A stretch of 36,562 nt of DNA, from the NCBI GenBank assembly GCA_964441885.1, contig CAYTVX010000002.1, positions 1 to 36,562 on the forward strand. The letters are read 5' to 3'. The notes under the pieces were generated by a model. The model was not told the origin of the DNA. It did not search any database and saw only the letters and a list, made by a program, of their open reading frames with translations. The stretch is from an uncultured Candidatus Saccharibacteria bacterium (lineage in GTDB: Bacteria; Patescibacteriota; Minisyncoccia; Phycocordibacterales; CALRHW01). Shown here piece after piece: positions 189-19,929 of the stretch. The position numbers and the translations under genes are program-made. Every line of letters begins with the position of its first letter. The stretch's first letter is position 1.

Positions 189-644
189 CTACATATGGAT
201 ATCAAACTTTCTGGTGCTCTCATCCACAAAAGTACATATCACCTGTATGTGTTCATTTGGCATTCCCTTGTACACCCGCTCTGGCCATTCTATACAAATA
301 AGATTGTGCGGATCATTTAAAAGTTCCTCCCACTTTATGTGCGCGAGCTCTTCTGGAGATTCCATTCTGTATGCATCTATGTGAATCAAATTTGAAAAAC
401 AATTTTGTGTTTTTGTATCAAGCTCGTATCTTTTTTGTAAAACAAATGTTGGACTAACTACTTGGCTTTTTACACCAAGTGCTTTTGCAACACCCTGCAC
501 AAAAGAAGTTTTTCCAGAGCCAAGCTCACCATACAAACCCACAACGGTCGCCTTTCCTGGTGGAATTTGGCAAATTTTTAAAAGATTATTAACAAAATCT
601 AAGGCAAGAGATTGTGTTTCTGTAAGATTTTTTGTAACTGTCAT
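189..644 (-). CDS. tsaE: tRNA threonylcarbamoyladenosine (t6A) biosynthesis ATPase TsaE (YjeE family)
   Basis: 151 aa with the P-loop GELGSGKTSF followed by SPTF and HIDAYR motifs in the typical TsaE order. The size is typical. Confidence 0.85.
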   Translation of the reverse strand: MTVTKNLTETQSLALDFVNNLLKICQIPPGKATVVGLYGELGSGKTSFVQGVAKALGVKSQVVSPTFVLQKRYELDTKTQNCFSNLIHIDAYRMESPEELAHIKWEELLNDPHNLICIEWPERVYKGMPNEHIQVICTFVDESTRKFDIHM

Positions 645-650
645 ACGACA

Positions 651-659
651 ATACTATCA
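651..659 (-). promoter_or_regulatory. Extended -10 element TGaTAGTAT lying 6 nt upstream of the tsaE ATG (candidate leaderless promoter)
   Basis: The minus strand reads TGATAGTAT-tgtcgt-ATG. No purine-rich SD lies between. Confidence 0.4.
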
Positions 660-668
660 TAAACGAGA

Positions 669-699
669 GTGCGCCCCAGAGCCGAAGCTTGGGGCGCAC
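669..699 (-). terminator. GC-rich intrinsic terminator hairpin downstream of the lipoprotein gene
   Basis: The minus strand reads GUGCGCCCCA-AGC-UUCG-GCU-C-UGGGGCGCAC, a 10-bp GC stem plus an inner 3-bp stem with a UUCG loop. It is followed by UCUCGUUUAUGAU and starts 32 nt after the TGA at 731-733. Confidence 0.6.
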
Positions 700-730
700 G
701 TGAGAGTCTTTCCTCTCTGTCTTTCTCCTT

Positions 731-1417
731 TCACTTGCAGTTCTTGTTGTTCTGTCCGGGAGCCGTCCAGGGCTTGCCGTGACCATGATTGTTGTGGGTG
801 TTTTCCCAGTAGGTGGTGTCGCCACCATACCATTCCTGGTAAAACTCTGGGCCCCGGTTGTAACGCCAGTCGTTTCCATTGGTGCCAAACGACACGGTGG
901 CCCCGGCGCTAGCGCCAGCACTGAAACTGCTGCCACCGGAGTAGTAGTCACCAAACTGGTTGTAACCACCACCCCACGGAACACTCGCTGGTCGCTTGAG
1001 GTAGGTGCTTTCCTGCACCACCTGCACGCGCACCGGCTCCATGGGCTGTGTCCACACCAGCTGGCCATTGGCGCCAACCTGCGCCGAAGGGTAGTTGTTC
1101 ACCAGCACCACCGGTGCCTGGTTTTGCACAACAACCCCAACGGGCTGAGCAACACCCGAGTGGACGGCGGGTCCATCGGTTGGCGTCTGCGCCAACATGG
1201 TCAGGTGGGTAAACTCGGGCTGATCCCGAACCACACCGTCCGACCACATGAAGTGGCCAGGGCCATCTGCAGGACGAGCTTCCCGCTTCACTTCTGCGGG
1301 CAAAACTCGTGCGGCATAGGCGGTGGGACGGTCGATGTTGCCTTTGTCCACGACGGACGAAGCGCAACCACCGACCAACAAGAAAACCGAAACTGAGAGG
1401 ATGTAAATGAGCTTCAT
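731..1417 (-). CDS. Putative secreted lipoprotein of unknown family (Gly/Tyr/Trp/Asn-rich C-terminus), probably horizontally acquired
   Basis: 228 aa. The N-terminus MKLIYILSVSVFLLVGGCASS is a signal peptide plus lipobox (VGG|C). The SD GAAAGGA ends 8 nt upstream of the ATG. Synonymous codons are G/C-ending (AAC, CAG, GAC, GTG, CTG), unlike neighbouring genes. Confidence 0.7.
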   Translation of the reverse strand: MKLIYILSVSVFLLVGGCASSVVDKGNIDRPTAYAARVLPAEVKREARPADGPGHFMWSDGVVRDQPEFTHLTMLAQTPTDGPAVHSGVAQPVGVVVQNQAPVVLVNNYPSAQVGANGQLVWTQPMEPVRVQVVQESTYLKRPASVPWGGGYNQFGDYYSGGSSFSAGASAGATVSFGTNGNDWRYNRGPEFYQEWYGGDTTYWENTHNNHGHGKPWTAPGQNNKNCK

Positions 1418-1470
1418 GCGGTTTGTCCTTTCGGGGACTAGGGGTGTTCTGTGTATTTGTAACTATGTCA

Positions 1471-1499
1471 ATTATATCACAGAGAATATGCAAAGTCAA
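1471..1499 (-). promoter_or_regulatory. Near-consensus sigma70-type promoter TTGACT-17 nt-TATAAT (with TGn extension) facing the lipoprotein gene
   Basis: The reverse complement of 1471-1499 is TTGACTttgcatattctctgtgaTATAAT. It lies in low-G+C DNA about 50 nt upstream of the ATG at 1417. Confidence 0.5.
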
Positions 1500-1530: not shown

Positions 1531-1536
1531 TATAAT
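1531..1536 (+). promoter_or_regulatory. -10 box TATAAT 6 nt upstream of the pilB-like ATG at 1543 (candidate leaderless promoter)
   Basis: Sequence is aatgctagTATAATctatatATG. There is no SD. Confidence 0.4.
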
Positions 1537-1542
1537 CTATAT

Positions 1543-3219
1543 ATGGTTCAATTTAACGAAGAAAAACAAAATCAAAGAGTAGAGGAACTAAAAAGACGTG
1601 AGGCAGAAGACCTAACACAGATACTGGCCACAAAATATGGCATCCCCTATCTAGACCTTGCCACTATTCCTATAAACATTGACGCTTTACGTGTGATAAA
1701 AGAAAGTGAGTCATTGGACGCTCAAGTGGCCGCATTTAATATTGTAGATAAAAAAGTACATTTGGGCCTACTATCTCCAAGCACAGAAAAAAGTTTGGCT
1801 GTAGTAGAGGATTTGAAAAAAAGAGGTTATACACCAATACTCTATCTTGTATCTCCTGAAAGTTTGAAAAAAGTTTGGGATAGATACAAAGATCTTTCCA
1901 TGTCTATGGAAACAAAGGGTGGCGCACTCGACATTTCAAATGAAGGAATTTTAGAATTACTTGAAAAAGTCACCACGCTTGATGAACTAAAAAAACTTAT
2001 AGAAGAAAGCTTGGGAGAGAAAAAAGCATATCGTATCTCTAGACTTCTAGAGACAATGCTGGCTGGTGCGCTTGCCAACAAAGCCTCTGATATACACCTA
2101 GAACCCGAAGAAAGCTACGTACGCTTACGATATCGTCTCGATGGTGTGCTTACAGATATAGTAAAGTTTGATACAGAAACATACAACCTCATTCTTTCTC
2201 GTTTGAAACTTCTTTCAAATCTAAAATTAAATATAAAAGGAAAAGCACAAGATGGTCGCTTTAGTATAAAACTCAATGATGATGAAATTGAAATCCGTAC
2301 ATCCCTTCTTCCTGGAGCATACAACGACTCAATCGTACTCAGAGTACTCAATCCAAAAGCTATATCTGTACCTTTAGAAGATTTGGGTATTCATCCACGA
2401 CTACTCGCCATACTACAAAACGAAATATCAAAACCAAATGGAATGATTCTCACCACAGGCCCCACCGGATCTGGAAAAACCACGACCCTTTATGCATTCT
2501 TAAAAAAAATTCACTCACCAGAAATAAAAATTATTACAATTGAAAATCCAATTGAATATCATTTACCTGGAATAGTACAAACGCAAACCGCCGAAGGATA
2601 CACCTTCCTTGAGGGACTGCGCTCTGCTCTACGACAAGATCCCGACGTGATAATGGTTGGTGAAATTCGAGATAATGAAACAGCAGAAATTGCCATAAAC
2701 TCAGCACTCACCGGACACTTGGTATTTTCAACACTTCACACCAACAACGCTGCGGGAGCTTTCCCCCGCCTCATCGACCTCGGTGTAAATCCAAAAGTAA
2801 TCACGTCTGCTATCAGTGTGTGTATGGCACAGCGACTAGTGCGAAAGCTTTGTGCTGATTGTAAAGCAGAAAAAACCCCAAGCGAAAAAGAAAAAGCTGT
2901 CATAGACAGAATAATAAATAGCATTGAAGACAAAACATATTTAGAAAAATTAGACTCTCAAAAAATGTGGGAAGCAAAGGGTTGTATAAAATGTAACTTC
3001 ACTGGATACAAGGGACGCGTGGGTGTATATGAAGCGATAAAAACTGACGAAAACATAGAAAAAATCGTTCAAGAAAATCCTAGTGAGAGAGAAATAAAAA
3101 AAGCCGCAGCCCCTCAACACATACTAGACATGCAACAAGATGGAATTATAAAAATTCTTCAAGGAATAACCTCTATAGAAGAGCTACAACGAGTAATAGA
3201 CCTTGAGGAGGAAAAATAG
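1543..3219 (+). CDS. pilB: Type IV pilus assembly / type II secretion ATPase of the GspE/PilB family
   Basis: Contains Walker A GPTGSGKTT, Asp box ITIENPIEYHL, Walker B DVIMVGEIRD and His box FSTLHTNNA. It also has the tetracysteine motif CADCK...CIKCNFTGYKGR and an N-terminal GspE_N-like segment (ATKYGIPYLDL). The track ORF starts at 1423, but M41 (1543) follows the TATAAT box, and the first 40 aa look like translated intergenic DNA. Confidence 0.85.
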   Translation: MVQFNEEKQNQRVEELKRREAEDLTQILATKYGIPYLDLATIPINIDALRVIKESESLDAQVAAFNIVDKKVHLGLLSPSTEKSLAVVEDLKKRGYTPILYLVSPESLKKVWDRYKDLSMSMETKGGALDISNEGILELLEKVTTLDELKKLIEESLGEKKAYRISRLLETMLAGALANKASDIHLEPEESYVRLRYRLDGVLTDIVKFDTETYNLILSRLKLLSNLKLNIKGKAQDGRFSIKLNDDEIEIRTSLLPGAYNDSIVLRVLNPKAISVPLEDLGIHPRLLAILQNEISKPNGMILTTGPTGSGKTTTLYAFLKKIHSPEIKIITIENPIEYHLPGIVQTQTAEGYTFLEGLRSALRQDPDVIMVGEIRDNETAEIAINSALTGHLVFSTLHTNNAAGAFPRLIDLGVNPKVITSAISVCMAQRLVRKLCADCKAEKTPSEKEKAVIDRIINSIEDKTYLEKLDSQKMWEAKGCIKCNFTGYKGRVGVYEAIKTDENIEKIVQENPSEREIKKAAAPQHILDMQQDGIIKILQGITSIEELQRVIDLEEEK

Positions 3220-3323
3220 TCAATTACACTACATTAAGAAACAGTTTTTAAAATTTACAATCTTGTAAAAAGTGCGTCCGTGTGAATAATTAGTAACCAG
3301 AGAGACTAAGTGGATACGAAAAA

Positions 3324-3490
3324 ATCCAAGGCATAAATCTCTAAACAACACTTTTAATATTCGTACCAAAAGTTAAATATTTCCCAAAGGATAACCCCAG
3401 CAAACCACACAAGGTGGTAACCAGAATGTCCTCTAAAGAGATACTACTAAGCCACAGGGGCTTCGTTGTTTAGAGATTTATATCTTGGAT
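3324..3490. repeat. 26-bp near-perfect inverted repeat (3324-3349 / 3465-3490) enclosing 115 nt with internal hairpins; candidate structured ncRNA or MITE-like element
   Basis: The left arm is atccaagGCataaatctctaaacaac. The reverse complement of the right arm is atccaagATataaatctctaaacaac, giving 24 of 26 paired. Interior hairpins are ACTTTT/AAAAGT, ACCAC-acaag-GTGGT and AAGCC-acagg-GGCTT. No ORF of 60 aa or more occurs in any frame across 3220-3662. Confidence 0.45.
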
Positions 3491-3530
3491 CTAAAAAGAA
3501 ACGCAGGCCACCTATAATATATAAGTGGCA

Positions 3531-3556
3531 ATAAAAATCAAGGCCTTTTCGCCTTG
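3531..3556 (-). terminator. Orphan terminator-like hairpin on the minus strand (CAAGGC-gaaaag-GCCTTG followed by AUUUUUAUU)
   Basis: A 6-bp stem (4 GC pairs) is followed by a T-run only in the minus orientation. No annotated minus-strand gene lies upstream of it. Confidence 0.3.
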
Positions 3557-3650
3557 GGCGCTTCCCTCCAACATTTATTTCAAAGACAACAAAAGCTTAG
3601 CATACAAATACAGAACTGTCAAGTATATATGGCTACCCGTGCTTTTTGTA

Positions 3651-3656
3651 TATAAT
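3651..3656 (+). promoter_or_regulatory. -10 box TATAAT 6 nt upstream of the ruvB ATG (candidate leaderless promoter)
   Basis: Sequence is tttttgtaTATAATtagcttATG. There is no SD. Confidence 0.4.
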
Positions 3657-3662
3657 TAGCTT

Positions 3663-4673
3663 ATGAAAAAGCCTTCTTCTAAAAAAGACTCAAATAGCAC
3701 TGAAGAATCTAGCGAGAAAGACCTAAATTCTCTAGATCAAACACTGCGCCCCTCAAAATGGAATGAGTATATTGGGCAAAAAAATATCAAAGATAACCTA
3801 CACATCCTACTCACCGCAGCACGCGAAAGAAATCATCCACCAGAGCATATTCTTTTTTACGGACCACCGGGGCTCGGCAAAACAACGCTAGCCCACCTCA
3901 TTGCAAAAGAAATTGGTGCACAAATAAAAATCACCTCCGGCCCAGCAATAGAAAAAATCGGCGACCTGGCGTCTATACTCACCAATCTTTCTCATGGTGA
4001 CATTCTTTTTATAGACGAAATCCACCGCCTCAACAAAACTATCGAAGAAGTGCTCTACCCTGCGATGGAATCGGGCGTGCTAGATATTATTATCGGCAAG
4101 GGCCCGTCTGCACGCACCATACAGCTAGAACTCCCCTTGTTTACACTCATATCGGCAACCACTCGTGTAGCACTCATCTCTTCTCCTCTACGTTCACGTT
4201 TTTCTGGAGGAATATTTCGACTGGAGTACTACAGCCAAAGCGAGATAGAAGAAATCGTGAAGCGATCTGCAAAAATACTTGATATAGAAATAGAAGACAG
4301 CGCCGTAAAAGAGATCGCGAAAAGAAGTAGGTTTACGCCACGTACAGCCAACTACTTTCTCAAACGTTGCCGTGATTTTGCACAGGTGCACAAGCAGTCA
4401 CTCACAAAAGAAATGGTAGACAAGGCCCTTTCCCTTCTCGGCATAGACGAAGTCGGCCTCTCACCATCAGACAGGACGATACTCGAAACGATAGCGAATA
4501 AATTTAAAGGTGGACCGGTGGGACTAAATACACTGGCGGCATCGCTCTCCGAAGAACAGGCCACGATAGAAGAATTCAATGAGCCCTATTTACTTCAAGT
4601 GGGATTTTTAGAAAGAACGCCACGCGGACGAACACTTACAGATGCTGGATATTTACACATTAAAAGAAAATAA
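3663..4673 (+). CDS. ruvB: Holliday junction branch-migration helicase RuvB
   Basis: 336 aa with Walker A GPPGLGKTTLA, Walker B ILFIDEIHRL and sensor regions. The C-terminal winged-helix segment EPYLLQVGFLERTPRGR is characteristic of RuvB. Confidence 0.92.
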   Translation: MKKPSSKKDSNSTEESSEKDLNSLDQTLRPSKWNEYIGQKNIKDNLHILLTAARERNHPPEHILFYGPPGLGKTTLAHLIAKEIGAQIKITSGPAIEKIGDLASILTNLSHGDILFIDEIHRLNKTIEEVLYPAMESGVLDIIIGKGPSARTIQLELPLFTLISATTRVALISSPLRSRFSGGIFRLEYYSQSEIEEIVKRSAKILDIEIEDSAVKEIAKRSRFTPRTANYFLKRCRDFAQVHKQSLTKEMVDKALSLLGIDEVGLSPSDRTILETIANKFKGGPVGLNTLAASLSEEQATIEEFNEPYLLQVGFLERTPRGRTLTDAGYLHIKRK

Positions 4674-9796: not shown

Positions 9797-10051
9797 TTAG
9801 CGAATATCAGCGATTTTAGAACCTTCACCACTATTTATGTTTTGAAGTAAAAGCTTCTTCTTTAAAAAAATCATATTTTTTATTATCGGAGAAGTGTTTA
9901 CATATAGAACACCGTTTTTTATCTTTACATCAGATGGGTTTATATCCACGCCAAGGGTTTTTTTCAGCACATCAACAATTACACCACTCTCTATAGCGCG
10001 TAAAGATAAAATTTTCTTAAATCTTTGTAAAAAAGAAGATAGGTTGTTCAT
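9797..10051 (-). CDS. DUF721 (DciA-like) small protein downstream of dnaN
   Basis: 84 aa. The pattern IKNGVLYVNTSPIIKNMIFLKKKLLLQNIN...KIADIR resembles the DUF721 core (NGVL.V.v.s......L......i...ln......I.di.fr). The position immediately after dnaA-dnaN is typical for this family. Confidence 0.5.
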   Translation of the reverse strand: MNNLSSFLQRFKKILSLRAIESGVIVDVLKKTLGVDINPSDVKIKNGVLYVNTSPIIKNMIFLKKKLLLQNINSGEGSKIADIR

Positions 10052-10062
10052 ATCCCTTTCAA

Positions 10063-11166
10063 CTATCTATTCATTGGCATTACCAAATACAAAAAAGATT
10101 TGTCTGAAACCCCACGAATAACGACTGGCTTATTGATCCCATTAAAATTTAAAGAGATGCTATCTGAATCTATAGACTGAAGACAATCTACGATATATTT
10201 GTAGTTAAAGTTTATATCTACATCTTCTCCCCCCAAAACAGAGTCAATTGTGTTTGTGTTTTCTCCTATATCAGAGTTTTTTGTTTGTAATTCAAATAGT
10301 TTTTTTGCTGGTGAGACTTTTATATTTATTTGATTTAATTTATTTGAAAAAATATTAGCTATTTTAAGAGAGTTCACAAAATCCTGCTTTAACATTACAA
10401 CTTCTGTTGTTTGAGTTTTTGGAATAATCTGTTTATAGTCTGGAAAAACACCGTCAATAACGCGTGAAGTTAAATAAATATTTTCATAACTAAAAGAAAT
10501 TTGGTTTTTCTCTAAATTCACCTGCACCTCACCAGAAACACCTTCTAATACACGAATTATTTCTGAAACGTTTTTAAATGGTATGAGTAAATAACTAAAA
10601 TCTTTTATTTTGTTTGTTTTTATTTTCTTTTCAGCTAAACGAAATGAGTCTGTTGCAACAAAAACTAAATTTTCTTCTTCGTCGCTATATATATAAACAC
10701 TGGCCAACTCTGATTTCATACTTGATACAGCAGAACTATACCAAACAGACTTAAGACCCTTAACAAAATCATTTGAATTAATTTTTAAAGATTTTTCTGT
10801 TGATACAACAGGAATTGTTGGAAAATCATCAGTTGAGTATGTTTTTATATGTGTGGAGTTTTTTTGCGTAGAAACAACCAAAACCCCATCTTCCTTAGAT
10901 AAAACAACTGTTTTGTCTCCCCCAACACTAGAAAGAAAAGATCCTAGTATGTTTGCTGGAACAGCTACAGAGCCTTCCTCTAAAACCTTAACCGGCATCA
11001 CTATCTCTATGCCCAAATCAAGATTTGTTGATTTGATAATTAAAGTATTATTTTTTGCTTCTAGAAAAATACAATTAATAACAGGTAAAGAATGATTCTT
11101 ACCGGCTATTTTTTCAGCTTGTAAAATATTTTTACTTAATTTCTCTATAAGGCATTCTACTTTCAT
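10063..11166 (-). CDS. dnaN: DNA polymerase III beta sliding clamp
   Basis: 367 aa, directly downstream of dnaA. The N-terminus is MKVECLIEKLSKNILQAEKIAGKNHSLPVINCIFLEAKNNTLIIKSTNLDLGIE and the central segment is ATDSFRLAEKK. Both match the clamp pattern (tlPiL.n.l.ea....l....TDle; ATDg.RLa). Confidence 0.88.
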   Translation of the reverse strand: MKVECLIEKLSKNILQAEKIAGKNHSLPVINCIFLEAKNNTLIIKSTNLDLGIEIVMPVKVLEEGSVAVPANILGSFLSSVGGDKTVVLSKEDGVLVVSTQKNSTHIKTYSTDDFPTIPVVSTEKSLKINSNDFVKGLKSVWYSSAVSSMKSELASVYIYSDEEENLVFVATDSFRLAEKKIKTNKIKDFSYLLIPFKNVSEIIRVLEGVSGEVQVNLEKNQISFSYENIYLTSRVIDGVFPDYKQIIPKTQTTEVVMLKQDFVNSLKIANIFSNKLNQINIKVSPAKKLFELQTKNSDIGENTNTIDSVLGGEDVDINFNYKYIVDCLQSIDSDSISLNFNGINKPVVIRGVSDKSFLYLVMPMNR

Positions 11167-11400
11167 AAACTGTAATGTATTAATTAATATTATATTAAAT
11201 ACTATTATTACTATAAGGACTGTTGATAACTGGATAACTCAAATTAGTCTTATTTTAAAACGTATTTTTAACTTTTCTTATCAACAACCTGTTAATTTTA
11301 TTTGGTAAGTTGTGTGTATTTTTTAAACTTTTACACAATTTAACATTCTTATCCACACACTTCGCTCTCTATTCACATCATATACACATTGTATAAAATA
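11167..11400. promoter_or_regulatory. Candidate oriC in the dnaA-dnaN spacer: DnaA boxes plus an AT-rich unwinding element
   Basis: A perfect TTATCCACA lies at 11349-11357. TTATCAACA lies at 11278-11286 (+) and 11221-11229 (-), and TTATCCAGT lies at 11229-11237 (-). Positions 11167-11220 contain only 8 G/C in 54 nt by hand count. Confidence 0.55.
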
Positions 11401-12750
11401 TCAAACCAACATCGACCTAATTTGGTTTATCTCTTGTGCGAGAAGATTGTCTGACTTGAGATCGTTCTTTATCTTTTCACAAGAGTGAATAACTGTAGTG
11501 TGATCTCTTCCCCCCATTTTTTCACCTATTGATGGGTAGGAGATGTTGAAATCTTCCCTGAGTATGTACATAGTGATTTGTCGCGGTTTTATAATTTCCT
11601 TCTTTCTGGTTTTTTCGTAAATACTTTCTTCGTTTATATTGTAGAAATCAGCGATTATTTTGATTATTTCTTTAGGAGAGAGATTCTTTTTTGGTTTAGC
11701 ACTATTTTTTATAAGATTTTTTACGTCGTTTAGTGTTAGATCTTTTTGTTTTAGTTGAGCTTGGCAGATTATGGTGTTTAAAGCCCCCTCAAGCTCCCTG
11801 ATGTTACTAGAAAGTGTTGTGGCTAGATAATCTACAACCTCAGTAGATAGGTCAAAATTGTGAGACTGTAGCTTGGCACGCAATATAGATGTTCTAGACT
11901 CGTGGTCTGGGGCAGGTATATCCACTATCATTCCAGCGCCAAACCTAGATTTTAGGCGGTCTTCTAGGTTTTGTATGTATCCCGGGTGTTTGTCTGATGA
12001 GAAAATGATTTGCTTGTTGTTGTCGTATAGGTGGTTAAATAGATGGAACAACTCCTCTTGTGTACTTTTTTTGTTTGAGAAAAATTGGATATCATCCATG
12101 ATTAAAATATCGTATTTTCTATACTTTTCCTTAAAATTGTTAACTTTTAGGTTTTGAACAGAGTTTATGTAGTCAACAGTAAATCTTTCAGATGTTACGT
12201 AGTGTATTTTACTTTCAGGGTTGGTTTGTTTTATGTGATTTCCTATTGCTTGGATAAGATGGGTCTTACCATGGCCAGTACTACCGTAGATAAATAGTGG
12301 GTTGTATACGATACCCGGTTTTTTTATGATTGCTTGAGCCGCTGCGTGGGCCAGCTCATTAAACGGGCCAACCACAAAGGTGTCAAAAGTGTATTTTGGA
12401 TTGAGGTTGTCTTCTTTGTTTATGTAAAACTCACTTAGTGGTAGCTCCCCTACGCTTTCCGGTAGGTTTCTAGTGGTGGAGTCGGGCTCTTTTTTCTTCG
12501 TATCGTTTTTATTGACGATATAGTCAAGCGATCTTATGTTTTCCGACATACCACGTAGAGACTTGAGGATAAAAGAGTGATACTTATCCATAAGCCACTG
12601 CTTTACAAAGGCGTTAGGGACACTCAAAAACGCTATGCCGTCTTCTATTTTATATATGAAAGTATCTTTAAACCATGTATTAAAATTAGCTTTTGAAACA
12701 TTAATTTCTACATCTACAAGAACGCTATCCCAAAGTTTTTTAGTATCCAT
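11401..12750 (-). CDS. dnaA: Chromosomal replication initiator DnaA
   Basis: 449 aa with Walker A GSTGHGKTHL, Walker B ILIMDDIQFF and sensor/arginine regions. The C-terminal DNA-binding signature is GEKMGGRDHTTVIHSCEKI. Confidence 0.95.
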   Translation of the reverse strand: MDTKKLWDSVLVDVEINVSKANFNTWFKDTFIYKIEDGIAFLSVPNAFVKQWLMDKYHSFILKSLRGMSENIRSLDYIVNKNDTKKKEPDSTTRNLPESVGELPLSEFYINKEDNLNPKYTFDTFVVGPFNELAHAAAQAIIKKPGIVYNPLFIYGSTGHGKTHLIQAIGNHIKQTNPESKIHYVTSERFTVDYINSVQNLKVNNFKEKYRKYDILIMDDIQFFSNKKSTQEELFHLFNHLYDNNKQIIFSSDKHPGYIQNLEDRLKSRFGAGMIVDIPAPDHESRTSILRAKLQSHNFDLSTEVVDYLATTLSSNIRELEGALNTIICQAQLKQKDLTLNDVKNLIKNSAKPKKNLSPKEIIKIIADFYNINEESIYEKTRKKEIIKPRQITMYILREDFNISYPSIGEKMGGRDHTTVIHSCEKIKNDLKSDNLLAQEINQIRSMLV

Positions 12751-12887
12751 AAATTGTTAGAGTTATTATATATGATTGTCTGTTTCTTCCTACTTGTTAA
12801 AAAGATGTAGTTATGTTGATACGTTGTGTATAAAGTGTGGACAGCTTTGTTTTGTTGTAAAACCTTGAATTAATTATGTTCCTCATA

Positions 12888-12893
12888 TATAAT
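12888..12893 (+). promoter_or_regulatory. -10 box TATAAT 8 nt upstream of the rpmH ATG
   Basis: Sequence is cctcataTATAATcccctattATG. Confidence 0.4.
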
Positions 12894-12901
12894 CCCCTAT
12901 T

Positions 12902-13036
12902 ATGTCTCAAACATACCAACCAAAAAAACGAAAACGAGGAAAAGCTCATGGATTTTTAGTGCGCCAAAGAACTGCTGGTGGAAAGAAAACCATCAAACGC
13001 CGACGTCAAAAAGGTCGAAAAAAGCTATCTGTTTAA
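12902..13036 (+). CDS. rpmH: 50S ribosomal protein L34
   Basis: My own translation is [44 protein letters not shown] (44 aa). It shows the classic L34 sequence and the classic position upstream of rnpA. It is below the ORF-track cut-off. Confidence 0.92.
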
Positions 13037-13048
13037 ACAAAAACAAAC

Positions 13049-13375
13049 ATGTTACCCTCAAAAAAGAGGATATCAAAGGACTCTTTTAAGTCTATTTTAG
13101 TGGGTGGAACGGTGATTCATTCTCCCAACTTCACACTTCGCACTGTTTCCTCTTCGGTTGAGGGTTATGCTGTGTTGGTTTCCAAGAAGGTCGCCCCGCA
13201 GGCTGTTTTAAGGAATAAGATAAGAAGGAGGGTTTATTCTATTATTCACAAAGCTTCTCCCTTTATAAAAAAAACAGCCAAGAATATCATTTCAGCCAAA
13301 GCCGGTGTTAAAAATCTTTCTTTTTCAGCCACCCAAGAGGAGGTGTTTCAATTATTGAAAAAGGCACTGCAGTAA
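13049..13375 (+). CDS. rnpA: Ribonuclease P protein component
   Basis: 108 aa and basic, with an RNR-like motif (LRNKIRRRVYS). The rpmH-rnpA-yidC synteny is conserved. Confidence 0.8.
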   Translation: MLPSKKRISKDSFKSILVGGTVIHSPNFTLRTVSSSVEGYAVLVSKKVAPQAVLRNKIRRRVYSIIHKASPFIKKTAKNIISAKAGVKNLSFSATQEEVFQLLKKALQ

Positions 13376-13392
13376 GATACAATGGTCTGATA

Positions 13393-14121
13393 ATGTCTGC
13401 TATATACAACACACTTATTTATCACCCACTCTACAACGGGTTGATTTTGCTTATGGATGTAATTCCTTGGGTTGATGCCGGAGTTATTGTTGTTTTGTTT
13501 ACTGCTATTATAAAACTCATATTGTTTCCCCTTTCAAAAAAAGCAGTAAACACGCAGATTCAAATGAAAGCTGTTGAACCAGAGCTTGCAGAGATTAAGG
13601 AAAAGTATAAAAACGACAAACAGGAGCTAGCTAGAAAAACGATGGATCTTTATAAAGAAAAAGGCATTAGGCCCTTTACGAGCGTTCTTCTTGTTTTTAT
13701 ACAGTTACCAATTATTTTTGCGCTCTACCGAGTTTTTTGGCACTCAGGATTACCAACAGTAAACACGGATATTTTATATAGCTTTGTGCATGTTCCAGAA
13801 TCAATCAATATGATGTTTCTTGGTCTTATAAACATCTCATTAAAAAGTAAGATTTTGGCTGTTTTGGTTGGCTTGTCTGCGTATTTACAAGCAAGAATAG
13901 TGACACCAAAACCTGTTCCTAAAAAAGATACCAACCCAAATGACAATTCTTTTAAGCATGATTTCGCTCGAAGTATGAGCATCCAGATGCGTTACGTTTT
14001 TCCAATAATCGCAGTTTTTATTTCCTACGGTATTTCAGCCGCGATTTCTTTGTATTGGATAACAAGTAATATCTTTACAATAGGTCAGGAGTTGTTTTTG
14101 AAAAGAAAACTAAAGAGATAA
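13393..14121 (+). CDS. yidC: Membrane protein insertase YidC (short, YidC/Oxa1 core only)
   Basis: 242 aa with about five TM segments. The amphipathic segment is KMKAVEPELAEIKEKYKNDKQELARKTMDLYKEKGIRPF and the tail is basic. Synteny supports the call. Confidence 0.85.
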   Translation: MSAIYNTLIYHPLYNGLILLMDVIPWVDAGVIVVLFTAIIKLILFPLSKKAVNTQIQMKAVEPELAEIKEKYKNDKQELARKTMDLYKEKGIRPFTSVLLVFIQLPIIFALYRVFWHSGLPTVNTDILYSFVHVPESINMMFLGLINISLKSKILAVLVGLSAYLQARIVTPKPVPKKDTNPNDNSFKHDFARSMSIQMRYVFPIIAVFISYGISAAISLYWITSNIFTIGQELFLKRKLKR

Positions 14122-15372
14122 AAGATCAAGGCTCCAAAGCGTTAGATCTGTTTTGTTGGTAAACAGTAAGAAGTTTTCAGCATCATCTAGTGTGAGATTG
14201 ATTGCGTCTACGTCTTTTCCAGATGCTTCTTTTATGTCTGAAAGTTTTTCACTGGTGCCTTTTGATAAATCTATTTTCCACAAACTATCAGAGAATGAAA
14301 TCAAACCTTTGTACCAAGAGTCTGGGTATTCCCCACTTGGTATTTTTGAAGGTATCGCACAATATACAGTGCCTGTTGTTTTTTTACTCCACACACATTT
14401 TTCTGTAAATGTTGGATTTGATGGTACTGGAGCAGAAATTCCTTCTTTTATGTTGTAAAAACTAAAAGAAACACTACCATCGGCGTTGATTTTATTAAAC
14501 AGTGTTGTAGAGGCTGTTTTGTTGGTTAGTGTTGTGAGTCCTTGTATTCCGCCAAGTATTCTTTGCATTTTTCCTGTGGTTGTATTGGTAAAGTACAAAT
14601 ATCCAAAGCTTTGTGCGCTAGCTTTTGTAGTGAGTGTTAGTGTGTCGCTTTTCGGCCACTGCACCACCCATTCATTTATTGGAGACTCAAAGACCGTTGT
14701 CTTTTTTGTGCCGTCTGGATTTGAGATTGCTCCAACGCTTCCAGTGCCAGCTTTTGTGAGGTAAAAGATTTGATCTTTTTTGTCTGGCACAGCCACAGCC
14801 ATCATATTTAAAGGAAGGTATGTGCTTTGTACTTCAGCAAGGTTGCTGTCTGGTGTGCTTGTGCCGTTTGTTGAAGCTGTGCTTGTGCTGAGTGTGCCGT
14901 AGATTGTTTCAATGAGATCACTGTCGTCTTTTAAATAACGTAGCAACACAGAGTCCTTTTTAAGGAAGGTTGCCTCTGCTATTTTGGGTATGGTTGTGTT
15001 TGATATTCTGTTTATTAGGGTTGTTTCTGTTTCTGCTTCGTATATGTTGCCTGTGCTTTTTTCTATAAAACTAATTATTGTTGTGCTTCCCTTTTTAAAT
15101 ACACCAGCTCCAGATACTGGAAAAGCATAAACCTGACGAAGGGTTGTGGGGATTGTTGGCTGTGTTGTAATGTCCTGTGTTGCTGTTGTTGGTTCTGTGA
15201 TGGGTTGGTCTATGTTATTTGAACCTTGTCCAAAAGGAAAATAATCGCGCAGGTTTATTCCACCCACAGTGGTGTCTCCTACACCCCCCTCTCGTGTGAA
15301 ATATATAAAACCAAGAACACCAAGAGCGATGACTAGGATTATAACTATAAAGATTATGATCTTATTCAACAT
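14110..15372 (-). CDS. Membrane-anchored extracytoplasmic protein of unknown function (last gene of the T4SS-like block)
   Basis: This is the 420-aa version, starting at ATG 15370-15372 two nt after the stop of the upstream gene. It has the N-terminal anchor IIIFIVIILVIALGVLGFIYF, a T/P-rich linker and a beta-rich body. I recognise no family. Its 3' end overlaps the yidC 3' end by 12 nt. Confidence 0.6.
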   Translation of the reverse strand: MLNKIIIFIVIILVIALGVLGFIYFTREGGVGDTTVGGINLRDYFPFGQGSNNIDQPITEPTTATQDITTQPTIPTTLRQVYAFPVSGAGVFKKGSTTIISFIEKSTGNIYEAETETTLINRISNTTIPKIAEATFLKKDSVLLRYLKDDSDLIETIYGTLSTSTASTNGTSTPDSNLAEVQSTYLPLNMMAVAVPDKKDQIFYLTKAGTGSVGAISNPDGTKKTTVFESPINEWVVQWPKSDTLTLTTKASAQSFGYLYFTNTTTGKMQRILGGIQGLTTLTNKTASTTLFNKINADGSVSFSFYNIKEGISAPVPSNPTFTEKCVWSKKTTGTVYCAIPSKIPSGEYPDSWYKGLISFSDSLWKIDLSKGTSEKLSDIKEASGKDVDAINLTLDDAENFLLFTNKTDLTLWSLDLLSL

Positions 15373-15374
15373 AT

Positions 15375-15791
15375 TTATAATATTTTTAACGTGGTTGAGA
15401 CCAGATTTGGGTTTATTGTTTTTAAGATAAACCAAGCCAGTATTGCCAAAAGAAGACCTAGTAGCGCTCTTTTTATCCTTTCTTTTCCGTCACTTTTCCC
15501 AGAAATAGAGTCGGTAGACATATACTCTATACCACCAATAACTATTTCTATTACAGCAAGAACGCCAGCTATACCGATGAGAAGTTTAAACATTCCAGGA
15601 AGATATGTGCTGAGCTCTGTTTTACCAGAAGAACAATTTGCATCACCGGTCGTACAAGTGTAAGGAAGTGGGCTTAGTGGGGTGTACTGTACTGGCTGTG
15701 CGTGGAGTGTTTTTGTATTTGAAAATATACCGCAAGCCAAAAAAAGCATCACCACAGAACTCAATAATATTTTTTTTATATTTATTTTCAT
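15375..15791 (-). CDS. VirB2/TrbC-like T4SS pilin candidate
   Basis: 138 aa. It has a signal peptide (...FSNTKTLHA|QP), then two hydrophobic helices (MFKLLIGIAGVLAVIEIVIGGIEYM and ALLGLLLAILAWFILKTI) separated by the charged loop STDSISGKSDGKERIKR. This is the topology of VirB2-type pilins. An ATGA start/stop overlap joins it to the upstream gene. Confidence 0.6.
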   Translation of the reverse strand: MKINIKKILLSSVVMLFLACGIFSNTKTLHAQPVQYTPLSPLPYTCTTGDANCSSGKTELSTYLPGMFKLLIGIAGVLAVIEIVIGGIEYMSTDSISGKSDGKERIKRALLGLLLAILAWFILKTINPNLVSTTLKIL

Positions 15792-16795
15792 ATATTTATT
15801 TGTCCACCATTCTGATTAAGTGCTTCAAATTTTATTGTTGTAGAGTAGTTTGCAAATTGTAACATTTTTTCAATGTTCTCAATCGCAAGAGAAATGATGG
15901 CTGTGCCACCCACCGAGCCCTCGGGCCTTCTTAAGACGAGAGAGTTTGGTTTTTCTTGGTTTGGTGTTATTTGTCCATTCATTTTCCATTTGTATGAAAG
16001 TGCTGGCGCGTCTTTTCTGTCTACCCCAAAGAAATATGGTGCAGAAGCGAGAGACACCTCTTTATCTCCCAGATCAAACTGTGACGGTAGTGCTTTGTTG
16101 TACATGATTCCATATAGTGGGTGGTTTTCATACAAAAGAACTTGCGGTTGGACACCACGCAGTTCTACGGCACTCTCTGATTTTAGACTACCATCTGCGT
16201 TTGTTACTTCTACGGCTATTACAAATGGTTTTGCTAAGACACCGCTACTGGTTGAGAGGAAGTTTTTGCCGTATCCAGATTGGTTACTTAGGACGCTGTT
16301 ATTTCTACTCCATTTGTATGAAAGAGTTTTTGGGTCTATGTTTTTTCCATCACTACCCACAAAAGAAGGCATGGCTATAAACTGAACAGTGCTTTGTGTA
16401 GAATATAGCGCTTTTCCTTTGTAAAAAGGCGGTGTGTAAGTATTTGCTTGCCAGAATAGTTCTAGGCCAGTGGGTCTGATCTCTGCTGTTTTTGTAAAGC
16501 TGTTTGATGATACTTTTATCGTGGAAACACTGCCGAGCTGTTTTGTTGTAAATTGAAATTGTCTTTCACCCATTCCCTTTTTTTCTACCTTACCGTCAAC
16601 AGACCAGACAAGTTCTAGGTTGTTTAGGTCAAACGCAAAGTTTTCTACCCGCACAGTCACCTGTTCATTTGGTCCGGGGTGTAGAGGGGTTATAAAAAAC
16701 TCTGTCTGACTTGGTGTCTGTGCGTGAGCCGTAAATCCAAACATTGAAAAAACAAATAAGAAAAAGATGATTGTTTTTTTGTGACTGTAGAGCAT
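15788..16795 (-). CDS. Secreted protein with three tandem beta-sandwich-like modules, unknown family
   Basis: 335 aa with the signal peptide MLYSHKKTIIFFLFVFSMFGFTAHA|Q. A module signature recurs three times: LELVWSVDGKVEKKG, LSYKWSRNNSVLSNQ and LSYKWKMNGQITPNQ. Confidence 0.6.
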   Translation of the reverse strand: MLYSHKKTIIFFLFVFSMFGFTAHAQTPSQTEFFITPLHPGPNEQVTVRVENFAFDLNNLELVWSVDGKVEKKGMGERQFQFTTKQLGSVSTIKVSSNSFTKTAEIRPTGLELFWQANTYTPPFYKGKALYSTQSTVQFIAMPSFVGSDGKNIDPKTLSYKWSRNNSVLSNQSGYGKNFLSTSSGVLAKPFVIAVEVTNADGSLKSESAVELRGVQPQVLLYENHPLYGIMYNKALPSQFDLGDKEVSLASAPYFFGVDRKDAPALSYKWKMNGQITPNQEKPNSLVLRRPEGSVGGTAIISLAIENIEKMLQFANYSTTIKFEALNQNGGQINI

Positions 16796-16816
16796 TTGAG
16801 TTGTTTCAGCTCTTTA

Positions 16817-16825
16817 ATTTTAGCA
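16817..16825 (-). promoter_or_regulatory. Possible internal promoter (extended -10 TGcTAAAAT) ahead of the secreted-protein/pilin sub-operon
   Basis: The minus strand reads cgTGcTAAAATtaaagagctgaaacaactcaaATG. It sits in the largest gap (32 nt) of that part of the block, right after the stop at 16828-16830. Confidence 0.3.
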
Positions 16826-16827
16826 CG

Positions 16828-17454
16828 CTACGCAGTTTGTTCAATGCGCGGTCTGCGTGGTTGTGAATTGTTTTTTGGTTTTCCTCCGACATTACCAATA
16901 TCAGCAACCCCTCTTATTACTTCTAGTGATTTGGCAAAATTACCCATTCCTGGATTTGCAGCAATGGCAGCTAGTGTAGCCAACACACCCATTATTTTAT
17001 CAATAGCTTCTTCTGCCCAAACACTTAGGATAATAAGTAAAATAGCTCCAAGCCACCCAGGTATATCGTTTATCACGGGTATTGCTTCTATCGTGATTCC
17101 TGTCCCAAAAATTAACCCCCTTTGTTTTATTACGTTTTTTACTGCGGTTTTTATCATGTCACCACCAGAGCTGATGGCGCTTTTTGATTTGAATCCGGTT
17201 GCTTTACCATTTTTAAATTGATCACCGGCTATTCTCGTTACATCTTTTATGCTGAAAAAGCTCACGCCGTTTACCTTTAGCCATATATAAAACACCACAC
17301 CAGCTATCACTGTGATAATTGTTGAAAATATTACGGAAACTATTATTAAAACTATTGTTGCATCAAGCAAGCTCACGACGAATTGCAGAAGGTCAAAAAT
17401 ACCAGCGACAATTAGCATTGCAACCGCTGTAAATTTTCCTATATGTTGTTTCAT
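16828..17454 (-). CDS. Polytopic membrane protein, unknown family
   Basis: 208 aa with several hydrophobic segments (FTAVAMLIVAGIFDLLQFVV, IVLIIVSVIFSTIITVIAGVVFYIWL, GWLGAILLIILSVWA) and a basic C-terminal tail. A 7-nt gap separates it from the VirB4 gene. Confidence 0.6.
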   Translation of the reverse strand: MKQHIGKFTAVAMLIVAGIFDLLQFVVSLLDATIVLIIVSVIFSTIITVIAGVVFYIWLKVNGVSFFSIKDVTRIAGDQFKNGKATGFKSKSAISSGGDMIKTAVKNVIKQRGLIFGTGITIEAIPVINDIPGWLGAILLIILSVWAEEAIDKIMGVLATLAAIAANPGMGNFAKSLEVIRGVADIGNVGGKPKNNSQPRRPRIEQTA

Positions 17455-17461
17455 AATTTTT

Positions 17462-19276
17462 TTAAGCCCCAGAAGCCTCTAAGTCTTTTTTTGCTTTCTG
17501 AATAGATAGCACCTGAGATGGATCAGAAGTAATAATTTGATCTTCTGTATATGATGCAATAATTTTAATCGCAACGTGCTTTAAGCCGGCAAAGAAAATA
17601 CCCTCTCCCACTGAAGATTCAAGCAGTAAGTATTTTTCTTCATCTGTAAGGTTGAATGTTTGTTGGAGTTTGTCTATGGAGGTTGGAGATTGTTTTAACA
17701 AAACTTGAATTGAGGAGTTGGTGATGATCGGCATTCCATATGGAGATTTTAGAAAATCATCTACGTCTTGAGTGATTGTCGCCAGTCCAAGGTAATATTT
17801 TCTTCCACGTTTTGCTAGGCTGAGCAAGAAAGATGCGGTGTCTTCTGATTTCATCATCCACCACGCCTCGTCTATCACAAGAAGGCGCTTTCGCAATTCT
17901 TTTCTAATAGCACTCCAAATATAGTGGGTCACTATATACATTGCTATTGGTTTTAGCTCGTCTTCCATGTCCCGCAAAGAAAACACAATAAATTTTTTGT
18001 TTATATCTATATTTGTTGGCCTGTTTATAAAGCCCGCCCATGTGCCCTTTGTATATTTTGAAAGACGTTGTGCCAAAGATTCTCCCCCCTCCATTCCTGT
18101 GAGCACAAGCTCAAAATCTGACATAAGTGGTGGATCAATGTTTGAAAAATCAGACTCAGCGGTGATATCTTTGAGCGCGTATGTTTCTGTGATGGCTCGG
18201 TCCATAATAGCGTCTTCTTCTGGGGTGAGTCCGCCGAGCATGAGTCTGAATAGACCAACGAGATTTATAATGTTGCTTCTAAGTACGCTCGATGCGCTTT
18301 CGCCCTCCCCTGGCATCGGCAGGTCAAACGGGTTGATATGGTGTTCTGAATTGAGGGAGATTTTAAAATATCTTCCACCCACAGCTTCAGCCATGTATTC
18401 ATACTCTCGTTCGGGGTCTATGACTATTACTTCTGTATCAAACATTAGAGTACGTAGAATCTCAAGCTTTGTGGCATATGATTTTCCAGAACCAGATTTT
18501 GCAAAAGTGATTGAGTTGTAGTTTTCAAGAGAGAAGCGATCAAAAAGCACAAGGCTTGAGTTGTGGCGGTTGATGCCATACAAAATTCCTTTGTCTTCGG
18601 TGAGATCAAAAGATGTAAATGGAAAAAGACTTGATAGTGGAGAAGAGTTGAGCTTGGAATGAACTTCTAGCAAGTCTGTGGCGATTGGTAGGACGCTTTT
18701 GTATCCTTGTTCTTGTTGGAAAAGTGCAGGCTTTACATATACAAGCTTTGATTCAAGAATAGATTTCATTTCTGATTCTATTTTATCTAGCTCTGCCTCA
18801 CTTTCTCCGTACAAAGAAATGTATAGACCAACATCAAAAAGTTTTTCTTGGGCTTGTTGTAAATTGTCACGAAGATTTTCTAAGTCTTGATATGCGGTGT
18901 CTAGCATTGGATCTCGTACCATCCCCTTTTCTTCTCGTTCGTGAATCTGGCTTTGTACCTCGGCCACCTTTTTTTGAAATTGTCGCAGTACTTTTACAGT
19001 ATCTATTGGGTGAATAAAAATAGATACATCAAAAACTCTGTCTAAGTTGATGATTGGAGCAAACCAGCTTTCTCCAAGGAAGCGTGGATATGAAATAACA
19101 AAAAAGGTGCGAACTATTTTGTCTCCAAGATTGAGCTCTCTTGGGCCTATTTTCAATGCACTTGGTGCAATAATATCTTTAAGCTCAAGGGTTTGAGCTT
19201 TGTATATCTCTTGTGGCAACATTCCCACAAGTTCTTCTTTACTTTCTTTTCTAAATAATTTGCTAAAAAAACTCAT
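17462..19276 (-). CDS. virB4: VirB4/TraC/TrsE-type T4SS ATPase
   Basis: 604 aa with Walker A FAKSGSGKSYATK, Walker B RLLVIDEAWWMM and the downstream motif GRKYYLGLATITQ. The N-terminal region (RTFFVISYPRFLGESWFAPII..DVSIFIHP) is typical of Gram-positive-type VirB4 proteins. Confidence 0.85.
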   Translation of the reverse strand: MSFFSKLFRKESKEELVGMLPQEIYKAQTLELKDIIAPSALKIGPRELNLGDKIVRTFFVISYPRFLGESWFAPIINLDRVFDVSIFIHPIDTVKVLRQFQKKVAEVQSQIHEREEKGMVRDPMLDTAYQDLENLRDNLQQAQEKLFDVGLYISLYGESEAELDKIESEMKSILESKLVYVKPALFQQEQGYKSVLPIATDLLEVHSKLNSSPLSSLFPFTSFDLTEDKGILYGINRHNSSLVLFDRFSLENYNSITFAKSGSGKSYATKLEILRTLMFDTEVIVIDPEREYEYMAEAVGGRYFKISLNSEHHINPFDLPMPGEGESASSVLRSNIINLVGLFRLMLGGLTPEEDAIMDRAITETYALKDITAESDFSNIDPPLMSDFELVLTGMEGGESLAQRLSKYTKGTWAGFINRPTNIDINKKFIVFSLRDMEDELKPIAMYIVTHYIWSAIRKELRKRLLVIDEAWWMMKSEDTASFLLSLAKRGRKYYLGLATITQDVDDFLKSPYGMPIITNSSIQVLLKQSPTSIDKLQQTFNLTDEEKYLLLESSVGEGIFFAGLKHVAIKIIASYTEDQIITSDPSQVLSIQKAKKDLEASGA

Positions 19277-19281
19277 GGTGT

Positions 19282-19920
19282 TTATTGAAGTTGAATAGGC
19301 TTTTCTGCATCGCCCGGATTGAAAATTTTATAAAATAATTCTACCACCTCTTCTGTGCCGAGCTGTATTACACGTATACCAGAGCTCACTAGCCCCTGCT
19401 CTACCACAGAAAGTCTCTGCTCTAGCTGTGTGCGACGCTCTTCAAAAACCTCTTGTGTGTCTACTTTTTTTTCTTCCGCATTTTTCTTTTTACCAAAAAT
19501 TCCAGCAACTGGGTTTTTACCCTGCAGAGCACCAGGTGAATACGGCACGATGACAAAGAAGTGTTTTGTCATGATGTTGGTGTTTTCAGTAAAATTTTTA
19601 ATGAACCCAATGTATTCTTGCACCTGAATTTTCATTAGATCATTTACTTGGTTTTTTTCGCGCTCTTCTAATAGGGCTATGTATGGACGAATATCAAGGC
19701 GGCGAGATTGTATAAAAATTTGTACAGAAAAATCGAGGGAGTTTAGGAAATCTTGGAACTGGTAGATTATAGCTGTGCGCTCGTCGTCTGATTTAAGAGA
19801 AAAATTGATAGAGCTAGCCATCAAAACAGCACGAAGTGAGCCGTCTTTTAGTGTTATGATTCCATCCTTTATGTCACTGATAGGAACAAATTCTTGAGAA
19901 GCTCTTGCGGTTGTTGCCAT
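19282..19920 (-). CDS. Soluble protein resembling the N-terminal domain of VirB4 proteins
   Basis: 212 aa with no TM. IITLKDGSLRAVLMASSINFSLKSDDERTAIIYQFQDFLNSLDFSVQIFIQSRRLDI follows the pattern recalled from VirB4 N-termini (..kDGsl.....l.G..fe....e.e.......n.l........l..h..Rr). It lies between the VirB3-like and VirB4 genes. Confidence 0.5.
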   Translation of the reverse strand: MATTARASQEFVPISDIKDGIITLKDGSLRAVLMASSINFSLKSDDERTAIIYQFQDFLNSLDFSVQIFIQSRRLDIRPYIALLEEREKNQVNDLMKIQVQEYIGFIKNFTENTNIMTKHFFVIVPYSPGALQGKNPVAGIFGKKKNAEEKKVDTQEVFEERRTQLEQRLSVVEQGLVSSGIRVIQLGTEEVVELFYKIFNPGDAEKPIQLQ

Positions 19921-19929
19921 ATGAAAGAA

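Follow-up and report, generated by a model that had tools for sequence, protein, structure and literature searches.

The window, as we call the whole stretch of DNA analyzed here (36,562 nucleotides of contig CAYTVX010000002.1, from an uncultured Candidatus Saccharibacteria bacterium), carries between tsaE and pilB a single gene for a predicted lipoprotein, embedded in a G+C island that proves to be old and to stand at a compositional equilibrium of its own. The gene, its signals and the neighboring genes are located in Table 1; we refer to the interval between tsaE and pilB as the slot, in the window and in relatives alike. The lipoprotein precursor begins M-K-LIYILSVSVFLLV-G-G-C18 and satisfies a PROSITE PS51257-type lipoprotein signal, judged by hand and regular-expression pattern as a short basic n-region, a hydrophobic h-region and a lipobox of the form [LVI][ASTVI][GAS]-C within about the first 35 residues. 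Most orthologues also have a lipobox of the GGC type. Lipoprotein maturation is represented within the 36.5-kb window by Lnt, while Lgt and LspA are not encoded there. The presence of Lnt in a genome of the Candidate Phyla Radiation (CPR), which has no known outer membrane, implies triacylated lipoproteins.

Table 1. Positions in the window of the lipoprotein gene, its signals and neighboring genes
Feature	Coordinates	Strand	Basis and remarks
Lipoprotein precursor, coding sequence (228 aa)	731..1417	-	ORF list, position-specific G+C, codon table, weak specific homology to slot proteins; stop TGA at 731-733
Signal peptide and lipobox, MKLIYILSVSVFLLVGG|C	1364..1417	-	Read from translation; Cys18 codon (predicted lipidation) at 1364-1366
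Shine-Dalgarno GAAAGGA	1426..1432	-	Read from sequence; 8 nt from ATG
Lipoprotein promoter	1471..1499	-	Promoter scan; -35 TTGACT at 1494-1499, 17-nt spacer, TG at 1478-1479, -10 TATAAT at 1471-1476
Conserved 21-nt 3' element, AAGACAGAGAGGAAAGACTCT	703..723	-	Between lipoprotein stop codon and terminator
GC-rich hairpin with UUCG loop, probable lipoprotein terminator	669..699	-	Inverted repeat, folding
tsaE promoter	645..659	-	Sequence; extended -10 TGATAGTAT at 651-659, 6-nt spacer to leaderless ATG at 644
tsaE	189..644	-	Pfam PF02367, E = 1.5e-30; GC3 0.296; native composition, downstream flank
pilB (T2SSE ATPase) with its -10 box	1531..3219	+	Pfam PF00437, E = 8.7e-117; coding sequence 1543..3219, -10 TATAAT at 1531-1536
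Lnt	25432-26883	-	Pfam; PF20154 (LNT_N) and PF00795 (CN_hydrolase)

Comparison with related loci, designated L003 and so on and drawn from NCBI, JGI, ENA and Logan assemblies of unrelated projects, shows that the signals around the gene are mostly shared. The lipoprotein promoter matches the consensus at 11 of 12 positions and ranks first among 11 promoter-like hits over the window's first 4 kb, and its TTGACTT and -10 region are invariant or nearly so in six lineages, in the form TTGACTT-N17-TGTGATATAAT. A Shine-Dalgarno (SD)-like motif precedes just 2 of the 33 open reading frames (ORFs) of the window, the lipoprotein gene being one of them, and is missing from the other 31; relatives keep the purine-rich SD (AAAGG) and the ATG of the slot gene. 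In tsaE, pilB, ruvB, yidC, lnt and others a TATAAT-like -10 box lies 5-12 nt before the start codon, and from this spacing and the rarity of SD-like motifs leaderless translation seems to be the norm in the lineage. The box of pilB, which is divergent from the lipoprotein gene, stands 6 nt before the ATG at 1543, and its promoter region is conserved in relatives, as is TGTGATAGTATGGTCGTATG at the tsaE promoter.

Downstream of the lipoprotein gene, the 91-nt 3' region has a folding energy of -40.2 kcal/mol (z = -4.3) that none of 200 shuffled sequences equals. The U-tract behind the hairpin is weak (UCUCGUUUAU), and a terminator scan made no call at that site. Relatives have hairpins of other stem sequence at the same position, each followed by a T-run; terminator hairpins that keep their place while their stems differ indicate compensatory change. 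The element in the 3' untranslated region (UTR), AAGACAGRGAGGAAAGACTCT, is near-identical in the window, L003, L004, L006 and L171 and holds a small GAGAG...CTCTC hairpin, while the coding sequence is unalignable at the DNA level. Indeed, blastn matches of the island in relatives are confined to the stretch around this element, which also matches L172. A structured RNA in the island was rejected, with no Rfam match at E up to 1. The 5'UTR of relatives is longer and contains a conserved hairpin with a GTTTCC loop (e.g., GGGGTGCGGAGCGTTTCCAAACCCC; sites at L003 5800-5900, L006 4295-4400, L008 5830-5900 and L009 5830-5890), and the window 5'UTR, of about 46 nt, has no such hairpin; the window lineage may have lost a regulatory element here.

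The island at 665-1450 has a G+C content of 0.59 and a third-position G+C (GC3) of 0.69, compared with 0.38 and 0.21-0.40 in the rest of the window. In 300-nt windows G+C is 0.60-0.63 across 751-1350 and 0.33-0.47 elsewhere in the first 6 kb; 600-nt windows reach 0.57-0.58 at 601-1500, and all others in the 36.5 kb, apart from those straddling the edges, are at or below 0.46. Steps of 30 nt place the borders at about 661 and 1450. The lipoprotein coding sequence itself has G+C 0.592, with values of 0.61, 0.48 and 0.69 at the three codon positions (GC3 0.686), compared with a GC3 of 0.21-0.40 in the 22 other window genes, so that in composition and codon usage it is atypical in the manner of a genomic island. 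The encoded protein is enriched in G, V, P, A and W and depleted in I, K, L and E. Re-encoding it with host codon usage gives a G+C of 0.473, between the 0.379 of host coding sequences and the observed 0.595, which apportions about 44% of the excess to amino-acid composition and about 56% to codon choice.

These results bear on a sequence-only reading of the locus, which had described a self-contained high-G+C cassette at 665-1499, a single 228-residue lipoprotein gene with its own promoter, SD and terminator. The island is real and the only one in the 36.5 kb, and the cassette is as described, including the near-perfect TTGACT-17-TATAAT promoter, the canonical SD with 8-nt spacing among SD-less native genes and the tight packing between the native leaderless signals of tsaE and pilB, which the sequence bears out. 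Two statements hold in part: the proposed UUCG terminator is a strong hairpin that lacks a good U-tract and a terminator-scan call, and the compositional shift, held not to be an amino-acid effect, owes its larger share to codon choice and the remainder to the amino acids.

The closest homologues of the window PilB (77-87% identity) come from metagenome-assembled genomes named Candidatus Paceibacterota (CPR/Patescibacteria) and identify the window organism as one of that group. Every close relative locus that was fetched preserves the order polA-tsaE, slot, pilB-ruvB-yebC-ruvC, and in all sampled relatives the slot is filled by one or two GC-rich ORFs of 97-269 aa in the window orientation, with a recognizable lipobox in most. 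The slot has G+C 0.48-0.64 against 0.36-0.48 for the locus, and GC3 0.48-0.75 against 0.27-0.49 for pilB. In a neighbor-joining tree of PilB the window is nested in a 13-lineage clade with the slot occupied in 13 of 13, while in the sister L012 and several deeper lineages the gap between tsaE and pilB is only 21-216 bp and AT-rich. Among the matches listed, many more distant Patescibacteria, the outgroups here, have tsaE directly adjoining pilB. Because the two genes are adjacent in distant lineages and the slot is filled across the window clade, the gene was inserted between them, as the sequence-only reading had proposed, but the insertion is old. The absence from the orthologous site of relatives that a recent island would show was not found at PilB identities of 77-87%, and the claim of a recent acquisition is largely contradicted, on grounds that the sequence-only reading had itself named, by a lipoprotein gene of the same composition in the slot of all sampled relatives and by further GC-rich genes in these genomes. 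In L173 the slot (3080-3895) includes a 271-aa ORF whose match to an integrase core (rve) is weak (E = 2e-4) and falls short of the Pfam cut-off; the ORF adjoins a 114-aa GC-rich ORF, and this may be the insertion of an insertion sequence into the slot.

The slot proteins themselves have diverged far more than their neighbors. Among relatives they are 23-50% identical where PilB is 83-94% identical, and the window lipoprotein is 23-30% identical to the slot proteins of relatives where PilB is 83-87% and TsaE 58-84% identical. Identity falls from 0.90 (L003-L004) to 0.50 (L003-L006) and 0.37 (L003-L008), with the window most distant, and this divergence parallels that of the flanks with no obvious incongruence among five lineages. 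BLASTP of the window lipoprotein against the L003 slot protein gives E = 2e-5; an alignment shows a block, VxRxAxPxxxPxxxWxDGxVxDxPE, in addition to the GGC lipobox, common to the window lipoprotein and its closest relatives; and a hidden Markov model (HMM) that includes the window lipoprotein recovers the L008 slot protein at E = 6.8e-10. The promoter, SD region, terminator position and both flanking leaderless promoters are kept in most close relatives examined, and the 3'UTR element in several; these non-coding parts are stronger evidence of orthology than the protein sequence.

Divergence of the slot gene is also of an unusual kind. Between L003 and L004 the ratio of nonsynonymous to synonymous divergence (dN/dS) is 1.05, compared with 0-0.06 for pilB, tsaE and polA, and 29 of the 39 differences affect the first or second codon position. 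The changes are clustered (6 within 11 nt): the N-terminal part has dN 0.0069 and dS 0.011, and the C-terminal third dN of about 0.14 and dS 0.146, in a pair whose PilB proteins are identical (12 synonymous nucleotide differences). Such clustered multi-base changes in the C-terminal third suggest recombination or conversion tracts.

Is the high G+C of the slot gene a remnant on its way to the host value? Between the window and relatives, fourfold-degenerate sites of pilB differ at p = 0.52-0.59 (Jukes-Cantor K4 0.9-1.1), which puts synonymous sites of the flank close to saturation. With the observed base frequencies in an F81 model, a compositional deviation shrinks by sqrt(1 - p/b), or 0.37-0.48, per lineage, and a neutral gene that shows a GC3 of 0.687 today must have started from 1.1-1.4. 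As no GC3 can exceed 1, the model excludes neutral decay of a foreign G+C content. The substitutions point the same way: changes between the L003 and L004 slot genes, polarized with L171 and L006, number 16 from A or T to G or C (W>S) and 16 in the reverse direction (S>W), where a host-type bias acting on a sequence of 58% G+C predicts 2-3.2:1 in favor of S>W (P = 0.001-0.03). A deeper comparison of the L003 and L171 slot genes gives 74:50, and a control flank (tsaE and polA), at its own equilibrium, gives 35:30. The S>W excess, a drift toward host composition, that would mark a recent island is thus not seen; the lipoprotein gene stands at its own stable high-G+C equilibrium and is not a decaying foreign remnant. 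Gene exchange in Patescibacteria is mostly with other Patescibacteria, and amelioration is the expected fate of old transfers (PMC12455944), which makes the persistence of this anomaly notable.

Searches for a source of the gene led back to the slot. A word-seeded search of 5.8 billion proteins returned the lipoprotein itself only, and phmmer against 1.84 billion cluster representatives returned one match outside the family (P0122, E = 4e-4), which was rejected as a repetitive unrelated protein. The family profile finds four clusters in the 5.8 billion proteins, and the other three are traceable, all to the tsaE-pilB slot. No donor-lineage homologue was found among IMG/VR viral contigs, INPHARED phage or PLSDB plasmid records, and a phage or plasmid origin was rejected on that basis. 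The suggestion of a high-G+C donor, possibly the host cell, accordingly finds no match, as searches gave only same-slot family members or nothing, while the earlier impression that the protein belongs to no recognized family agrees with the large protein searches and with Pfam and NCBIfam, in neither of which does any family match the 228-residue lipoprotein.

Some leads on the product deserve mention. An AlphaFold2 model from a four-sequence alignment has a mean predicted local distance difference test score (pLDDT) of 31. In a profile search of the PDB, family positions 180-227 (lipoprotein residues about 145-190, in the G/Y-rich C-terminal region) matched 4tsh_B and 3qe5_A over 48 residues at E = 0.017-0.04; this is sub-significant, and membership in the C-terminal domain of streptococcal antigen I/II adhesins was rejected and is kept as a lead only. 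Many slot proteins (window 731-745; L008, L009, L172 and L175) have a Cys with just one to three residues behind it, of which a terminal or near-terminal one is basic; the endings seen are NCK, CNK, CKSR, PCR, HCR and KCR, and this C-terminal Cys may be a conserved motif beside the N-terminal lipobox Cys.

Taken together, the lipoprotein transcription unit is autonomous, fixed in the clade and inserted between two divergent leaderless genes. We think it likely, if short of firmly established, that the island is a clade-restricted, orthologous and vertically kept surface-lipoprotein gene of Paceibacterota that diversifies fast while its G+C content is actively maintained. The gene would have been acquired or have evolved in an ancestor, at a site flanked by the leaderless promoters from which tsaE and pilB diverge, and would have been inherited in the slot since. 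The protein would be exported and held on the outside of the membrane by a lipid anchor at Cys18, with a mostly disordered, G/V/P/A/W/Y/N-rich mature part. High expression of the gene is probable, given an extended -10 promoter close to consensus, an SD of a kind rare in the window and a stable 3' hairpin, and we infer a function at the cell surface, with selection either relaxed or diversifying: near-neutral or diversifying evolution would fit a surface-exposed molecule that meets a partner cell, phages or the environment. The neighborhood of pilB is suggestive in this regard.

How the composition would be held is a separate matter. Candidates are GC-biased gene conversion (gBGC) at a recombination-prone locus, selection on nucleotide or mRNA composition and an exchange of alleles drawn from a GC-rich pool by way of the conserved UTRs. 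In bacteria, recombining genes have higher GC3, mainly through non-optimal GC-ending codons, according to Lassalle et al. 2015 (PMC4450053), and gBGC is a candidate that fits the recombination-like pattern of the L003-L004 changes; against it, the effect at the lipoprotein gene is very large. A bolder proposal, which we put forward tentatively and with more doubt than conviction, is that nucleotide composition itself is held about 0.2 in G+C (up to 0.4 in GC3) above the genome through saturation of synonymous sites, while the protein evolves almost freely, by gBGC or by selection on DNA or mRNA.

Several points weigh against the interpretation of a vertically kept gene with a maintained composition. 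Its orthology leans largely on position and conserved UTRs, the protein homology being weak: an HMM built without the window lipoprotein ranks it as top non-member of 3,524 ORFs at a non-significant E = 0.085, and the smaller slot proteins of L009, L011, L172, L174 and L175 are missed by the family HMM. The amelioration model assumes neutral fourfold sites in pilB and presence of the gene in the common ancestor, and the polarized substitution counts are small and parsimony-based. The low pLDDT, finally, may merely stem from the shallow alignment used for modeling.

Other small orphan genes of high G+C (0.50-0.58) occur in the relatives at sites that vary between strains, namely L003 562-1191, L004 830-1228, L004 8340-9041 and L009 515-898. 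L003 and L004 have different GC-rich genes at one shared site whose flanks are 99% identical, and L004 has an additional 1.2-kb GC-rich insert between pilB and ruvB. Accessory genes of the window clade thus appear to be GC-rich rather than AT-rich, and a reduced CPR genome of this kind keeps a small, fast-turning-over set of GC-rich orphan genes. If composition is maintained as proposed, this suggests that the whole accessory pool of the clade is GC-rich, the opposite of the AT-rich accessory genome usually seen, which could perhaps come about through uptake of partner-cell DNA by the adjacent type IV pilus machinery.

The same observations enter into the strongest alternative, which we consider unlikely though deserving of weight, namely that the slot is a recombination hot spot at which Paceibacterota lineages swap very divergent lipoprotein alleles or cassettes, with homologous recombination acting on the conserved UTRs and flanks. 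An old GC-rich pool, perhaps seeded from beyond the clade, would supply the alleles, and the window allele need not be vertical. Such exchange would account for UTRs and promoters that are far better conserved than the coding sequence, for the clustered changes and steep C-terminal rise in dS of the L003-L004 pair despite identical PilB proteins, for slot content that varies in the number and size of genes and includes the transposase-like ORF of L173, and for alternative GC-rich genes at other sites in strains with near-identical flanks. However, slot-protein identity follows the flank phylogeny in the five lineages compared, no family member was found outside the slot in the 5.8 billion proteins, and exchange leaves the GC-richness of the pool unexplained.

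It is very improbable that the ORF is incidental, that is, that GC-rich DNA or its transcript is maintained, for instance for a structural or regulatory role between the divergent units of tsaE and pilB, and that the ORF reflects a scarcity of stop codons. Long ORFs are indeed open in five of the six frames across the island, and a dN/dS near 1, a protein predicted to be unstructured and a UTR element better conserved than the coding sequence could all be read this way. GC3 is nevertheless highest in the lipoprotein frame; most lineages retain the in-frame signal peptide and lipobox although the mature part has diverged almost completely, and the SD and ATG are conserved, as is an internal motif; dN is below dS in the N-terminal part; and Rfam offers no match. 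A 205-aa antisense ORF (779-1396, + strand) was rejected as a gene, since it has no conserved counterpart in relatives.

Recent horizontal acquisition by the window genome, with a high-G+C donor that may have been the host cell, we find scarcely credible. It draws on the strong contrast in GC3 (0.686 against about 0.30), on an SD and GC-rich hairpin that look foreign in a leaderless, SD-poor genome and on the strain-specific GC-rich genes of relatives, which show GC-rich DNA entering the clade. Slot, orientation, promoter and odd composition are, however, the same in sampled relatives down to 77% PilB identity, no search that was run returned a donor homologue, and the substitutions are balanced rather than decaying. 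Pfam scans of the window ORFs found no integrase or transposase family, and the island is flanked by chance-level repeats only. A target-site duplication (612-668 against 1449-1490, resembling a copy of the tsaE promoter or 5' end) was rejected because relatives show a shared extended -10 consensus; the similarity of 628-668 and 1449-1490 is a promoter consensus, TGTGATAnnAT, common to two separate promoters. An assembly or binning artefact, the joining of a GC-rich fragment of another organism into a low-G+C contig, would explain the abrupt change in composition at both borders but can be set aside with near certainty, as two runs (SRR12762303 and SRR12762304), each assembled on its own, yield contigs that cover tsaE, the lipoprotein gene and pilB, encode the exact lipoprotein and span both junctions at 99.9-100% identity to the window, and the same architecture appears in the assemblies of unrelated projects (NCBI, JGI, ENA and Logan).

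Elsewhere in the window, dnaN (10063-11166) and dnaA (11401-12750) adjoin rnpA and yidC; near them G+C falls to 0.28-0.31 and the GC skew switches sign at about 11.4 kb, and 9900-13400 is probably the chromosomal replication origin region. On the minus strand, 14110-25400 encodes a type IV secretion system pilin (PF18895), a TraG/VirB4-like P-loop ATPase, PrgI and several large proteins without Pfam matches; in this the cluster is similar to the monoderm-type conjugation or type IV secretion apparatus reported from Patescibacteria (PMC12102498).

Atypical G+C is routinely read as recent horizontal gene transfer, and for the slot gene this reading is wrong, as the anomaly is clade-wide, old and at equilibrium. 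The slot lipoprotein is a new, narrowly distributed family, unusual for a maintained compositional anomaly and not for transfer. The locus cautions against equating G+C islands with recent transfer and offers a tractable case for what sets local G+C in bacteria; as a single gene, 0.2-0.4 above its surroundings in GC3, near-neutral at the protein level and bordered by conserved UTRs, it is a clean natural test bed in which gBGC could be told apart from selection on nucleotide composition. In CPR bacteria, a surface lipoprotein that is lineage-specific, probably abundant and encoded beside a pilus ATPase gene would also be a candidate for partner-cell contact.

Comparison with known systems places the gene as follows. 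The slot lipoprotein resembles lipoproteins of the Lgt/Lsp/Lnt pathway in its signal peptide and lipobox Cys, and Lnt is present in the window. Lpp, the abundant Braun lipoprotein of Escherichia coli, is likewise small, with a strong promoter of its own and a stable 3' hairpin, but it is unrelated to the slot lipoprotein by sequence or family; the slot lipoprotein differs further in its G/Y/W/N-rich mature part, predicted to be disordered, and its dN/dS of about 1, and no outer membrane is known in CPR cells for Lpp-like binding. Genomic islands and phage "morons" are single-gene cassettes of atypical G+C that bring a promoter and terminator of their own, and the slot unit is likewise autonomous, deviant in composition and wedged between two unrelated genes. 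In contrast to these, it is not in a prophage, has no mobility genes, is fixed in the clade rather than strain-specific and does not decay in composition.

Two systems of diversified surface proteins offer closer likenesses. Borrelia vlsE is a surface-lipoprotein gene much richer in G+C than the AT-rich genome around it and is diversified by gene conversion at an antigenic-variation locus; the slot gene is also GC-rich and hypervariable in the AT-rich genome of a host-dependent bacterium, and its clustered substitutions suggest conversion-like events. Unlike vlsE, to which it has no sequence similarity, it shows neither silent cassettes nor partial copies within the 36.5-kb window, nor such cassettes in the 9- to 14-kb loci of relatives. 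Diversity-generating retroelements (DGRs), reportedly common in CPR bacteria, diversify lipoproteins such as Legionella LdtA, and the slot lipoprotein likewise varies most in its C-terminal region between strains. A DGR mechanism was nonetheless rejected, as the 36.5-kb window contains no template repeat of the island and no reverse transcriptase, and the substitutions are mixed and not adenine-specific. With gBGC the differences are of scale and evidence: a GC3 excess of +0.17 to +0.41 in one gene looks, in our judgment, far larger than expected, and recombination at the slot is deduced from the pattern of changes. The likeness is that the slot locus combines raised GC3, a recombination signature and balanced W>S and S>W changes, as in the bacterial gBGC described in PMC4450053.

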